A stretch of 64,000 nucleotides of DNA from a virus (IMGVR_UViG_3300021431_000075:256001-320000); one strand, 5' to 3'. Positions 19,882 to 48,110 are shown, counted from the first letter of the stretch. Numbers and translations are program-made. Notes: a model not told the origin generated them from the letters alone.

Positions 19882-20496
19882 CTACTTCTTGAACAAATCC
19901 TTATAAAGACTTACGATAGGACACTGCGGCGCGAAGTTTCTCTCGGCGCTGTCTATCTTGGAGTCGTCGCTGTGAGTCCACGGGTCGTTCGGATAGAACA
20001 GAATCTGCAGTATCGTCCGGCACCAGTACCTCCAACTGTAGAAGTACGTGTAGATGAGTTCCTCATCGTTTTCCTTACCTGTTTCGCAGTATGAGAGCCT
20101 GTCAGCCATGATGTACTTGTAATTGTCGCTGAACGACAGCCATACCACGTCGTTCAATGTCGTGGATTCCGGCTCTATGTCTCCCTGGACCATTCCGGCG
20201 ACCGGGAACTGGTAGCCTGCCTTGCTCATGTCTATGGACAGTGCCAGCAGCGCGGAGAACGACCTTGCCTTCATGAGCCTTGACAAGAACGGGCGTCTCT
20301 TTTCCTCGAAGTACTCTTCCTGCTGTCTCCGGACGCGCTCCTTGTAACCGGACTCCTTTCCGAGCAGCGTGAGGAACCTTTCCTTGACGTTCTTCCTCGG
20401 AGCCTTGAACGTATCCTCGTCGAGCCTTTGCCTGACTTGTACAGACAAGTCCCTCATTATGGATTCGTATAGTTTGATTTTCTGTTGCTTGTTCAT
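19882..20496 (-). CDS. LYESIMRD-leader protein with a unique body
   Basis: MNKQQKIKLYESIMRDLSVQVRQRLDE; AATAAATA at 20520-20527. Confidence 0.75.
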   Translation of the reverse strand: MNKQQKIKLYESIMRDLSVQVRQRLDEDTFKAPRKNVKERFLTLLGKESGYKERVRRQQEEYFEEKRRPFLSRLMKARSFSALLALSIDMSKAGYQFPVAGMVQGDIEPESTTLNDVVWLSFSDNYKYIMADRLSYCETGKENDEELIYTYFYSWRYWCRTILQILFYPNDPWTHSDDSKIDSAERNFAPQCPIVSLYKDLFKK

Positions 20497-20675
20497 TTCA
20501 CCTAATGGTTGTGTTTCCATATTTATTGAAAACGCAAGCGGGAGACTATCTGCACAGACCGCCTCCCGCGAAGTCATCCGCGGGAAATATACGAACCGCG
20601 GATGCTCTCACCTAATTAATTAACTAAAAATGTTGCCTCGCCGCAAAAAAAGCCCACCACGGCGAATAGCGACGC

Positions 20676-20972
20676 CTACGAGCGGATGCTGAACGCCTCC
20701 AGCAGTTCGTCGAACGCGTCTTCGGAAGAGAAGTTCCGGAAGTCGATGTCCGCGACCTCGGAAATCCTCTGCATCGTATCCTTCCGGTTCTGGATTCTCG
20801 CCTTGATGAACGAGTTCTTGTGCATCCAGTTTCCGGATGTCATCCTGTCAAGCGACGCGAGTTCGCTGTTGCTGTCCATAGCCTCTGCCGATAGGGCGTC
20901 AAGACATGCCAGCAATAGCGCGTCGCGCTGCTCGGATGTCAGATTCCTTATGTCTTCCTTTGATTCGATCAT
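20676..20972 (-). CDS. Hypothetical protein
   Basis: ORF in operon. Confidence 0.65.
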   Translation of the reverse strand: MIESKEDIRNLTSEQRDALLLACLDALSAEAMDSNSELASLDRMTSGNWMHKNSFIKARIQNRKDTMQRISEVADIDFRNFSSEDAFDELLEAFSIRS

Positions 20973-20992
20973 CGCATTGGTTTTTTTATTTG

Positions 20993-21430
20993 CTATTTGT
21001 GGTTCAATCGTTTCAGTCTATCAATTTCAGCACAAATCAATGCACCTGCCTTGATAAGATTTTTGATTCTTCCTTCTATAGTATCTTCACTTGATAGTTT
21101 GAGATCTTGCATATCCCATGGCCAAGAGTTCATTACTTGTTCTCTTTGACACTCTGGGCACACATATACCATTGCAGATTTGGATAGTTGTCCTTCTGCT
21201 TCTCCATCATCGTGAAACGAATCATAGCCCTCCTGATTGATTTGTCTTAATCTTTCATCCCACACAAGTTTCACTGATTCTGGTGCATTGCTTAGTACGA
21301 ACTTGCCGCCCTTTATGAATGCCTCATACTCATCATGCTTACCAACCCATCTTGTATGACCATATCTATCCTCTTCTTCTTCGAATGGATAACGTACCTC
21401 TCCTTCTTGTTTAAGTTGTTCTTCATTCAT
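20993..21430 (-). CDS. Conserved phage hypothetical protein
   Basis: ERLRQI..EGY...HDD..WPW..LIKAGALICAEIDRL. Confidence 0.75.
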   Translation of the reverse strand: MNEEQLKQEGEVRYPFEEEEDRYGHTRWVGKHDEYEAFIKGGKFVLSNAPESVKLVWDERLRQINQEGYDSFHDDGEAEGQLSKSAMVYVCPECQREQVMNSWPWDMQDLKLSSEDTIEGRIKNLIKAGALICAEIDRLKRLNHK

Positions 21431-21442
21431 ATCAAATTCCTC

Positions 21443-21721
21443 CTATCCAATAAATGCTCTTCTGAATTGTTTGTTTTGCCATTCATAAAAAGCAATGCTT
21501 TGTTCTTCTGGTGAAAGTTTTGGTTCTACAAGTATTGCTACTTGTTTGACCTTGGTTTGAGGACACGAATCTAATGAAACCATTGTAATTGATAATTGTT
21601 CTTTTGTAGAATCAAATGATTTACCGCATACAACTTGGCAATCTTGTCCTGCTATGTCTCTTAATTCAGTCAAACGCTGAATAAGTCCATCAAGACTTAT
21701 TAATTCATTCTTTGTATCCAT
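21443..21721 (-). CDS. Hypothetical protein (AT-rich block)
   Basis: ORF. Confidence 0.6.
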   Translation of the reverse strand: MDTKNELISLDGLIQRLTELRDIAGQDCQVVCGKSFDSTKEQLSITMVSLDSCPQTKVKQVAILVEPKLSPEEQSIAFYEWQNKQFRRAFIG

Positions 21722-21723
21722 AA

Positions 21724-45884: not shown

Positions 45885-46472
45885 ATGAGAAAACAAAATA
45901 AGAGAGCTCTTTACGAGAGCATCATGAGAGATGTTGCTAAGGTTGTCAAGAGACGACTGAGCGAGGGTTTATATGACTTTGATTCAACAAATTCATACGA
46001 TGATGTTGATGACATTATTAATAGAAGAGATGAAGAAAGACGCAGAAATGAATTTGCTGAAAAATATGAAATTGTTGACAAAATGCCAATAGAAGGTTTT
46101 AGGAGAGTTGTGAATAAAAATACAGGCAAAGAAAATTATATAGACTCAAAAGGTCGTTTTATTTCAAGAAATTGGTATGATAGGTGTTATCCGTTCAATA
46201 AAGAAGGTTATGCAAAAGTTAGAACAACAAAAGTTAGAACAAATAATTTTGGAGAACGATACACATATAATCTTATGAATAAAGACGGACGTATTTTGTT
46301 TGGGTACTGGTGTGAAGAGTTGCATGATTTAAAGGACAGCGATTATGTATTAGTTAAGATAAACGGTTCTTATAATTTTATAGATCTGCATGAAAGATTT
46401 TTGTTTAATTCATGGTTTAAATCCAAAGCCGATGCTTTAGAAGCTTATTATAAACATTATGAAAAATTGTAA
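45885..46472 (+). CDS. LYESIMRD-leader protein with short WG-like repeats
   Basis: MRKQNKRALYESIMRDVAKVVKRRLSE; NYIDSKG, FNKEGYAKV. Confidence 0.85.
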   Translation: MRKQNKRALYESIMRDVAKVVKRRLSEGLYDFDSTNSYDDVDDIINRRDEERRRNEFAEKYEIVDKMPIEGFRRVVNKNTGKENYIDSKGRFISRNWYDRCYPFNKEGYAKVRTTKVRTNNFGERYTYNLMNKDGRILFGYWCEELHDLKDSDYVLVKINGSYNFIDLHERFLFNSWFKSKADALEAYYKHYEKL

Positions 46473-46511
46473 GATGGATAACAGAATTATTGGAATATAA
46501 TTAAAAGAAGC

Positions 46512-46546
46512 AAAAGTCGTTCTGCCAAAATCAGAGCGACTTTTTT
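46512..46546 (+). terminator. Rho-independent terminator (similar to that at 48147-48180)
   Basis: aaaagtcg...cgacttttt. Confidence 0.75.
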
Positions 46547-46641
46547 GTAAGAGTTATGTCAATTTCAATGAACAGTTATGTTTGTTCTGTTTCTTTTGGA
46601 CATTCTCAATAAATATCAATATAAACCATGCTGTTGGAAAA

Positions 46642-46896
46642 ATGTCTGCATATAAATTCTTGAATGAAAGCTTGCTGGATGATGTTGAAACTGATGATGT
46701 TGATGATGTTGATATAGAAGCAGAAGATAGTTTTGCGGGAGAAGAGCCTTTTGTTTGGGTTTTTAAATACGAACACACTGTTCCGTCATGCACGAGGGAT
46801 TATCTCAATAAGATACTGGCAAGCAGCGAGTGTGTTGGAAAGTTTGACGAACTTATGTTTAATGATGACTATATTGCAGGCATTGGAACGGATTGA
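46642..46896 (+). pseudogene. Truncated 5' copy of the WG-repeat gene at 50214
   Basis: Near-identical to 50214..50463, then switches sequence at an 18-bp microhomology. Confidence 0.9.
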
Positions 46897-47075
46897 GACG
46901 GGTGCGGTCGTTCGCGTCCGGAGCCGATGGCTTCCCTAATGCAGTCCCATGCAGCACGATTGGTTCATGATGCGGATTGGAGTGAATGGACTGTTTGTCT
47001 TGGACTTCTGTTCGTTATGTGTTCTGGATTCTTTTTTTTTGTGCAATAAATAAACAAAATGCATTTTTTGATTAA

Positions 47076-48110
47076 ATGAGAAAACAAAACAAGAGAGCTC
47101 TTTACGAGAGCATCATGAGAGATGTTGCTAAGGTTGTCAAGAGAAAGCTTAACGAAGAAGATGACCTTTATGATTCAGAAACCGGTAGTAAGAGATATCG
47201 TATATTCCAGAGACTAAGTGACGGCATGGCAATTATTACTAAATACCATAGATATAATTTTATAAACAGAGATGGATTTATCATATCACCTACTTGGTTT
47301 GATTGGGTTGGTAATGATTTTTATGAGGGTTTTGCAAGAGTCGAGAAAAATGACAAATGTAATTTTATAGATAAAAATGGCAATTTGCTTCTTGATGAAT
47401 GGATGTTTGATCGAGTTAGTGATTTTCATGAGGGTTTTGCAAGAGTCTGGAATGACGACAAATGTAATTTTATAGATAAAAATGGCAATTTGCTTCTTGA
47501 TGAATGGTTTGAAGGAGTTGGTAATTTTCATGAGGGTTTTGCACCAGTCTGGAACAAGGAAGACCGGAAAATGAATTTCATAGATAAAAACGGAGATCTT
47601 TTATGTCGTGAATGGTTTGATGAAGTTGATGATTTTCATGAGGGATTTGCAAGAGTCTTGAAAAATTACAAATGTAATTTTATAGATAGAAATGGCAATT
47701 TGCTTTTTGATAAATGGTTTGATCGAGTTGGTGATTTTCATGAAGGTTTTGCACCGGTCTGGAACAAGGAAAACTGGAAAATGAATTTCATAGATAGAAA
47801 CGGAGATCTTTTATGCAGTGAATGGTTTGATGAAGTTAGCAATTTCAAGGACGGTTACGCAATAGTCCGTTTGAGATATGAGGAGAATGTTATTAATACC
47901 GACGGGAAATATATGCTTCCTGAATGGTACGACTATTGTTATCCGAAGAGAAACGGCGAGATAATGGTTATGCGTCGTAGAGGAACTGGTTTCCAGATTG
48001 GTGAGTACGACTCGAGAGGCAGATTCAACGGCGAATGGCGCGATATTGATAAGAACAGTCGTGAATATAAGTTATTCATCGGAAGAAGAATAAACTTACA
48101 ATATAAATAG
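47076..48110 (+). CDS. LYESIMRD-leader WG-repeat protein
   Basis: Same leader as 45885; DFHEGFARV..NFIDKNGNLL..WFD repeats. Confidence 0.92.
   Translation: MRKQNKRALYESIMRDVAKVVKRKLNEEDDLYDSETGSKRYRIFQRLSDGMAIITKYHRYNFINRDGFIISPTWFDWVGNDFYEGFARVEKNDKCNFIDKNGNLLLDEWMFDRVSDFHEGFARVWNDDKCNFIDKNGNLLLDEWFEGVGNFHEGFAPVWNKEDRKMNFIDKNGDLLCREWFDEVDDFHEGFARVLKNYKCNFIDRNGNLLFDKWFDRVGDFHEGFAPVWNKENWKMNFIDRNGDLLCSEWFDEVSNFKDGYAIVRLRYEENVINTDGKYMLPEWYDYCYPKRNGEIMVMRRRGTGFQIGEYDSRGRFNGEWRDIDKNSREYKLFIGRRINLQYK

Follow-up and report, generated by a model that had tools for sequence, protein, structure and literature searches.

A conserved N-terminal leader on non-homologous proteins of a Lak-type megaphage, a candidate head-targeting propeptide

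Why should phage proteins with unrelated bodies begin with the same leader of about 27 residues? The question is raised by four genes in a stretch of 64,000 nucleotides (nt; the window), bases 256001-320000 of the 673,114-bp virus record IMGVR_UViG_3300021431_000075, which has direct terminal repeats and five tRNA genes; positions are those of the window unless marked as genome positions. Over 86-93% of its length, the major capsid protein of this virus (genome 29977-32100, minus strand) shares 71-73% identity with that of 15/15 Prevotella phage Lak records, and the genome is therefore that of a Lak-type megaphage. The reading favoured here, with a probability of roughly 55%, is that the leader is a head-targeting propeptide of these phages that would be removed by a protease, by analogy with the capsid-targeting sequences (CTS) of T4.

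The initial annotation had reported that the genes at 20496 and 31870 (minus strand) and at 45885 and 47076 (plus strand) open with one leader carrying two L-x-E sites, and the translations bear this out for all four, with the common consensus M-x2-Q-x-K-R-x-LYESIMRDVAKVVKRRL(N/S/D)E. The real start of gene 19882-20496 is the ATG at 20496, not the ATG of the longest open reading frame at 20577. The leader copies in the window, with their matches to a leader hidden Markov model (HMM), are as follows.

20416..20496, minus strand: leader of gene 19882-20496, 27 codons, translated as MNKQQKIKLYESIMRDLSVQVRQRLDE; HMM 58.9 bits
31784..31870, minus strand: leader of gene 31319-31870, 29 codons, MRLSRTHKKRLYESVMRTLSKHVYRMLSE; HMM 50.9 bits
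45885..45965, plus strand: leader of gene 45885-46472, 27 codons, MRKQNKRALYESIMRDVAKVVKR(R/K)L(S/N)E; HMM 67.5 bits
47076..47156, plus strand: leader of gene 47076-48110, 27 codons, MRKQNKRALYESIMRDVAKVVKR(R/K)L(S/N)E; HMM 65.4 bits
42777..42854, plus strand: truncated leader relic, MGKQSGNALYESVVDDVA..., 25 codons followed by a stop, in a GC-rich island; HMM E 8e-4

The relic was absent from the earlier list, which had instead included weaker echoes at 14559 (LIKES) and 40342 (VDES); these score E ~600-800 against the leader HMM, no better than chance, and are dropped. When the HMM was run against all six frames of the 673-kb genome, 14 strong copies (51-70 bits) were obtained, together with weaker copies at genome 208039(-) and 240751(+) and a pseudogene at genome 324080(-); the genome thus holds 12 further leader genes and one pseudogene beyond the window. 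The leader stands at residue 1 in 16/16 genomic copies. It is predicted to form a basic amphipathic helix of ~27 residues with a net charge of +6 and a hydrophobic face made up of L9/Y10, I13/M14, V17, V20/V21 and L25. No Pfam or PHROG family covers it, and its matches in the ESM Atlas were all generic single helices.

Behind the second E the four proteins diverge, as had also been noted: two continue into WG repeats, and by Pfam and BLAST the other two are related neither to each other nor to the WG genes. These bodies are listed below.

19882..20415, minus strand: orphan body, predicted mostly alpha-helical, GC 51%; no Pfam or PHROG match; AlphaFold2 (AF2) mean predicted local distance difference test score (pLDDT) 62
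31319..31783, minus strand: orphan body, predicted alpha/beta, GC 54%; no Pfam match; AF2 mean pLDDT 69
45966..46472, plus strand: body of a WG-repeat protein, GC 31%; PF14903 E 4.7e-6
47157..48110, plus strand: body of a WG-repeat protein with ~8 repeats; PF14903 E 3.2e-26

The WG_beta_rep (PF14903) scores are 27.0 bits for 45885 and 91.5 bits for 47076, against a gathering cut-off of 25.6. The AF2 models of the two minus-strand bodies are of modest confidence, and a Foldseek search of both against the PDB gave no significant match. The 20496 body has close homologues only (at least 85% identity) and the 31870 body has four (46-97% identity); the leader is present in all of them.

Across the genome, BLAST separates the bodies of the 14 strong and 3 weak leader genes into at least eight unrelated groups. 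One is formed by WG repeats and includes both plus-strand window genes, another combines an HExxH motif with sub-threshold metallopeptidase matches (a weak zincin-type signal), and one body has a sub-threshold GNAT match. The bodies at genome 561285/562849 are a related pair, those at 323009/660035/240751 are mutually related, and the remainder comprise several orphans, both minus-strand window genes among them. In a metagenomic sample, 127 bodies formed 90 unconnected groups; VWA_2 was among the families matched by leader-bearing bodies, ~100/108 of which had no Pfam family, and the sampled bodies of metagenomic relatives were acidic on average. The leader is thus supported as a portable N-terminal module on non-homologous bodies.

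The same data bear on a very improbable alternative, that the leader genes are one paralogue family whose C-terminal parts have diverged past recognition, with no domain capture or portability at all. The kinship within the WG group, the trio and the pair named above would fit it, and since most bodies are orphans, sequence alone cannot exclude homology among them. However, the bodies match distinct families, some strongly and some weakly (WG_beta_rep, HExxH zincin, GNAT, VWA_2), and their predicted secondary-structure classes differ (beta repeats, all-alpha, alpha/beta). WG repeats, moreover, also sit behind a different, acidic leader, and the 45885/47076 pair has its breakpoint inside the basic leader (both described below).

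A profile of the 32 N-terminal residues was then run against 1.84 billion cluster representatives. At least 1000 representatives of 50%-identity clusters matched at E<=0.001, 67 of them at E<=1e-10, and nearly all of the cluster matches listed have the leader at residue 1; among 149 matches aligned without gaps, it begins no more than 10 residues from the N-terminus in 131. L-Y-E and E27 do not vary in these 149; Leu stands at P3 in 140 and Asn almost always at P2, L25-N26-E27 being invariant or nearly so. The module ends sharply: information content is 4.3 bits at E27, 1.35 at the residue that follows (S>N>D>G>A) and ~0.5 further on.

Among 50,697 GenBank phage records, matches were found in 15 Lak records only and in no T4-like phage. 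The HMM gave 9 matches in Lak-A1, 12 in Lak-B1 and ~10 in a 553-kb IMG/VR relative. Only 4 loci came from a pattern scan of IMG/VR, most relatives being in ENA and Logan assemblies. Three leader genes follow one another on a TAG-recoded contig of 22% GC from a distant Lak relative, and contigs from sheep-rumen metagenomes carry a close relative of one leader gene. TAG is needed as a sense codon in Lak-A/B/C, in the 553-kb relative and in the 22%-GC contig, unlike in the source genome, which reads well in the standard code with a coding density of 91%. The leader motif was not found in the literature searched, where the string LYESIM appeared only in unrelated contexts, and the terms 'N-termin', 'protease' and 'promoter' did not appear in the Lak phage papers checked; nor did the literature searched yield a proteome of these phages.

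Genes of 31-36% GC and genes of 51-54% GC code for the same peptide. Over 19 core codons, synonymous difference between copies reaches 0.71-0.77 and non-synonymous difference 0.11-0.21. Saturated synonymous sites beside a conserved peptide show purifying selection on the protein, and differences of this size make most leader copies old paralogues rather than recent insertions.

A prohead protease (genome 624491-626329, minus strand) was recognised by its match to phrog_207, the T4 gp21 family (E 9e-29); its GELDHP and VSSR align to GELNHP and VSSR of T4 gp21, the His and Ser motifs. It was found through phrog_207 only, as PF03420 (T4 protease) and PF04586 (HK97 protease) had no match in the genome, and searching the PDB with the sequence of the protease domain brought no match. 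The protein carries a 430-residue acidic, scaffold-like tail, and a separate gp22-type scaffold was not found in the genome with phrog_237. A ClpP at genome 441201-441944 (plus strand) was considered as the head protease and rejected: it is of cellular type (206 bits) and lies beside thymidine kinase and TelA, away from the head genes.

The prohead protease has five [LIVMF]NE[SN] sites, the highest number in the proteome (8.2 per 1000 residues vs 0.46, Poisson P ~1e-5). Three of these sites are kept in Lak-A1 and in the 553-kb relative: R(V/I)NES, which directly follows the protease domain, YLNES, and (L/V)MNE(N/E), close to the C-terminus. The low-complexity parts of the protein differ among these diverged, TAG-recoded relatives. 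The capsid protein has KLNE followed by D, with the candidate cut between E and D, ~55-57 residues from its real start, and this is kept in Lak-A1 and Lak-B1. T4 gp23 has LTE at residues 63-65, directly before AEIGG, which we take to be its mature N-terminus. From this recurrence of the motif, the protease would prefer to cut at [LIVM]-N-E with S, D or N as the next residue. A complex prediction of the leader with the C-terminal scaffold-like domain of the protease scored 0.00 and, run without controls, speaks neither for nor against binding.

Some of the leader genes lie close to head genes. Four are found 1.7-4 kb downstream of the T4 gp20-type portal gene (genome 656533-658371; phrog_213, E 1e-63), and the 553-kb relative has two leader genes with unrelated bodies 5-9 kb downstream of its portal gene. 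Two more adjoin each other at genome 561-563 kb; one of them has a homologue next to the terminase gene in a closely related contig.

Expression signals were compared as well. An xATAAATA motif had been described 5-25 nt upstream of all four window genes, and it is present at 23, 5, 23 and 23 nt from the start codons.

20520..20527, minus strand: AATAAATA, promoter-like motif, 23 nt before the ATG of 20496
31876..31883, minus strand: GATAAATA motif, 5 nt before the ATG of 31870
45854..45861, plus strand: AATAAATA motif, 23 nt before the ATG of 45885
47045..47052, plus strand: AATAAATA motif, 23 nt before the ATG of 47076

The GATAAATA motif is too near the ATG for an ordinary 5' untranslated region (UTR), and its role for gene 31870 is therefore uncertain. 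Genome-wide, 151/192 occurrences of [A/G]ATAAATA are intergenic, although intergenic DNA makes up 9% of the genome; ATAAATA lies within 60 nt upstream of 124/641 genes in the sense orientation vs 10 in antisense, most commonly at a spacing of 20-35 nt. It stands 21-28 nt upstream of 14/16 leader genes and 5 nt upstream of a fifteenth. The motif precedes portal, protease, head-closure-like and capsid genes and is not found before ClpP, thymidine kinase, the CCA-adding enzyme or the methylase. Judged by these positions, [A/G]ATAAATA is a general late-type promoter-like signal and not specific to the leader, and sharing it with the head genes places the leader genes in the head-gene promoter class. 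The T4 late promoter is TATAAATA.

Recoding in the relatives is in line with this class. In the 553-kb relative the leader genes have 4-5 in-frame TAG codons and the portal gene 10, and neighbours behind host-type TAnnTTTG promoters have none. Borges et al. reportedly found in 2022 that recoded stops mark late genes in such phages. With the shared promoter class and the in-frame TAG codons of relatives as its basis, late-class expression of the leader genes may be proposed.

In the favoured reading, the ~27-residue basic amphipathic helix would dock the nascent protein onto the core of the assembling prohead. After assembly of the shell, the gp21-type protease would cut behind L-N-E (E27), and possibly also behind L-Y-E (E11), freeing the variable body inside the capsid, from where it could be ejected with the DNA into the Prevotella host. 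The bodies (WG repeats, the weak HExxH and GNAT signals, hundreds of orphan folds) would then make up a large, fast-turning-over packaged set. Docking to the core, cleavage, packaging and injection are all steps that we infer.

The closest known system is that of the T4 internal proteins, which are targeted to the core by CTS propeptides of 10-19 residues that are removed by gp21 at (L/I)-x-E and can bring foreign proteins into the head (PMC9026906). Like the CTS of IPI, IPII, IPIII and Alt, the Lak leader is short and N-terminal, stands on unrelated mature parts and ends in (L/I)-x-E. The source phage is further T4-like in its gp21-family protease, its gp20-family portal and its late-type xATAAATA promoter, and the variable cargo genes of T4, which differ between relatives (PMC9026906), have putative counterparts in Lak phages. 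In contrast to the T4 CTS, the Lak leader almost always has Asn at P2; it occurs on 9-17 genes per genome and in at least 1000 distinct clusters, compared with 3-4 genes in T4, and the sampled bodies of metagenomic relatives are acidic on average, whereas the T4 internal proteins are basic.

Two other systems are comparable in part. Cargo-loading peptides of encapsulins are short and conserved and send diverse cargo into the lumen of an HK97-fold shell; they are usually C-terminal and uncleaved and bind the shell protein directly, in a bacterial compartment and not a virion. They would resemble the Lak leader as a short conserved address tag, and differ from it in terminus, cleavage and compartment. 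The propeptides of head and ejection proteins in phiKZ-like phages are long, do not share one sequence and have the cleavage motif (S/A/G)-x-E, unlike the Lak leader with its L-N-E and Leu at P3. Many head-internal proteins of the phiKZ-like giant phages (for example SPN3US, protease gp245) are described as processed by a gp21-related protease (PMC5694885, PMC10052503). What would be new here is an addressing system analogous to the CTS but specific to the Lak clade, unrelated in sequence to that of T4 and with a very large cargo diversity; the T4-type CTS principle itself was already known.

Several points weigh against a head-targeting propeptide. The cleavage specificity of the protease is deduced solely from motif recurrence, and the enrichment of N-terminal [LIVM]NE is dominated by two paralogous leader families, so that the counts are not independent. 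Only 4/17 copies lie in the head module, by the portal; two are at genome 561-563 kb, for which adjacency to the terminase is seen only in a relative, and the others are dispersed. Among the leader genes, that at genome 662354 has no ATAAATA within 60 nt, and 31870 has the motif just 5 nt from its ATG. With 27 residues against 10-19, the leader is longer and far more conserved than the 10-residue T4 CTS and has no sequence similarity to it (MKTYQEFIAE); a leader so long and so highly conserved would fit any specific protein-protein docking, not head targeting alone. Finally, Lak phages are uncultured.

In another explanation, possible if rather unlikely, the leader would be an uncleaved helix that docks varied small domains to a common hub other than the prohead core. 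This hub might be a site on the virion surface or tail, where WG-repeat and other binding modules would be displayed, or a factor of the phage or host inside the cell. In the leader, a broad hydrophobic face on an amphipathic helix goes with very strong conservation, which is typical of a specific protein-protein interface, the helix is predicted in both AF2 models (the 20496 and 31870 proteins), WG repeats are usually binding modules, and most copies lie outside the head module. However, conservation ends exactly after L-N-E, the motif recurs in the protease tail and in the N-terminal region of the capsid protein, and the cluster on the portal side has conserved synteny. We also know of no precedent for uncleaved 27-residue anchors on orphan proteins of 100-300 residues.

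An invariant N-terminal segment on variable small proteins also recalls maturation systems guided by a leader, in which the segment would be a recognition tag for a modifying or processing enzyme, for instance a radical S-adenosylmethionine (SAM) enzyme, in the manner of ribosomally synthesised and post-translationally modified peptides. This appears improbable here: the only radical SAM match (PF04055) is sub-threshold and located at genome 384 kb, with no leader gene within 60 kb of it, the leader genes are dispersed and monocistronic with promoters of their own, and the bodies have 100-340 residues with folded domains rather than short core peptides.

The nucleotide identity of 45885 and 47076, said earlier to end near the end of the leader, extends from ~195 nt upstream (45690 and 46874) to leader codon 23 (45953 and 47144) and is then lost.

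45690..45953, plus strand: duplicated stretch, copy 1 (spacer, promoter, 5' UTR, leader codons 1-23); 90% identical to 46874-47144
46874..47144, plus strand: duplicated stretch, copy 2; 264-275 nt, 90% identical to copy 1
45865..45876, plus strand: perfect palindrome AAAATGCATTTT, 12 bp, in the conserved 5' UTR of gene 45885
47056..47067, plus strand: palindrome AAAATGCATTTT in the 5' UTR of gene 47076

The pair gives one direct example of a breakpoint, from duplication or recombination, that falls within the leader. An 84-codon fragment at 46642-46896 (plus strand) starts like an acidic leader (MSAYKFLNESLLDD...) and ends at the start of the duplicated stretch of 47076; the fragment is a chimera left over from the duplication. 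The proposal of the initial annotation that promoter and leader form a plug-in cassette is thus partly supported: it holds for the leader, which is modular, stands on unrelated bodies and has this breakpoint, but not for the promoter, which is general (124/641 genes). A recently mobile promoter-plus-leader cassette is rejected for most copies, as their synonymous sites are saturated.

In the whole genome, the 30-nt 5' UTR with AAAATGCATTTT stands in front of nine leader genes and one leader pseudogene and nowhere else; it is better conserved than the adjoining synonymous sites. The palindromic UTR may be an operator or a translation element of a leader-gene regulon. The same facts could be taken to mean that conservation reflects a nucleic-acid element, a translation start region or a regulatory RNA or DNA, and not the peptide. 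Against that, differences within the leader are nearly all synonymous, and the peptide is kept across 21-54% GC and in both code-11 and TAG-recoded genomes, whereas the UTR is not; a nucleic-acid element in place of the peptide is extremely improbable.

A second leader, x5-10-[LIVM]NE-SLLDxVExDEVxD, is present on ~55 genes of the genome, mostly coding for WG-repeat proteins. Like the basic leader it is N-terminal, has [LIVM]-N-E and ATAAATA promoters, and is fused to WG repeats and to other bodies; it differs in that its conserved part follows N-E rather than preceding it, and in that the proteins are large and arrayed (400-780 residues, in tandem arrays at 48338-63998 on the plus strand and 31882-37778 on the minus strand). 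Being acidic, it is complementary in charge to the basic leader. We only tentatively suggest a two-tag system, in which the basic LYESIM helix and the acidic LNE-SLLD..DEV tag, with one gp21-type protease cutting [LIVM]-N-E, would fill the capsid with a very large and quickly exchanged repertoire for co-injection.

If this were true, the repertoire would comprise hundreds to thousands of families, small and mostly acidic orphans together with WG-repeat binders, and would constitute an arsenal for anti-defence and host takeover, made in advance and exceeding that of T4 by an order of magnitude; the tag would also be a ready-made handle for loading foreign proteins. A tag that worked like the T4 CTS could likewise serve to bring proteins into related capsids. 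Lak megaphages, common in the guts of humans and animals, are among the largest known phages, and for most of their genes no function has been assigned. A clade-wide tag would give the first functional handle on hundreds of orphan families, as late, head-addressed and probably injected, and would indicate where to seek anti-defence or host-takeover effectors of Prevotella phages. The leader also defines a concrete protease motif that is approachable in vitro without phage culture.

Some further observations concern the surroundings of these genes. Beside the protease gene, genome 618429-622769 (minus strand) encodes a 1446-residue protein with seven tandem repeats. Five of these are spaced at exactly 29 residues, and every repeat has xE(F/M)NEDVK and with it the [LIVMF]-N-E motif. 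A search against PHROGs returned nothing informative for the protein; it may be a polyprotein cut into ~29-residue internal peptides, like the products of T4 gp67 and gp68. Directly after the portal gene, genome 658475-659134 (plus strand) encodes a 219-residue peptidase-like protein (phrog_16701, E 1e-12), whose location and sequence (48% identity) are conserved in the 553-kb relative.

The GC-rich island at 32001-44000 has 53-63% GC, compared with ~39% for the genome, and contains WG-repeat genes and GC-rich versions of leader genes; genome 200-300 kb has 45-53% GC overall. The plus-strand WG array is interrupted by a TnpB / IS605 OrfB gene with a Cas12f-like TNB domain (52602-53855, plus strand), and a TnpB-like element is also found in the 553-kb relative, next to its portal gene, and on a rumen contig, close to a leader gene. 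On the minus strand, a CCA-adding / poly(A) polymerase-family enzyme with a host-type TAnnTTTG promoter upstream is encoded at 18375-19721, and an Eco57I-type N6 DNA methylase at 25380-26825.

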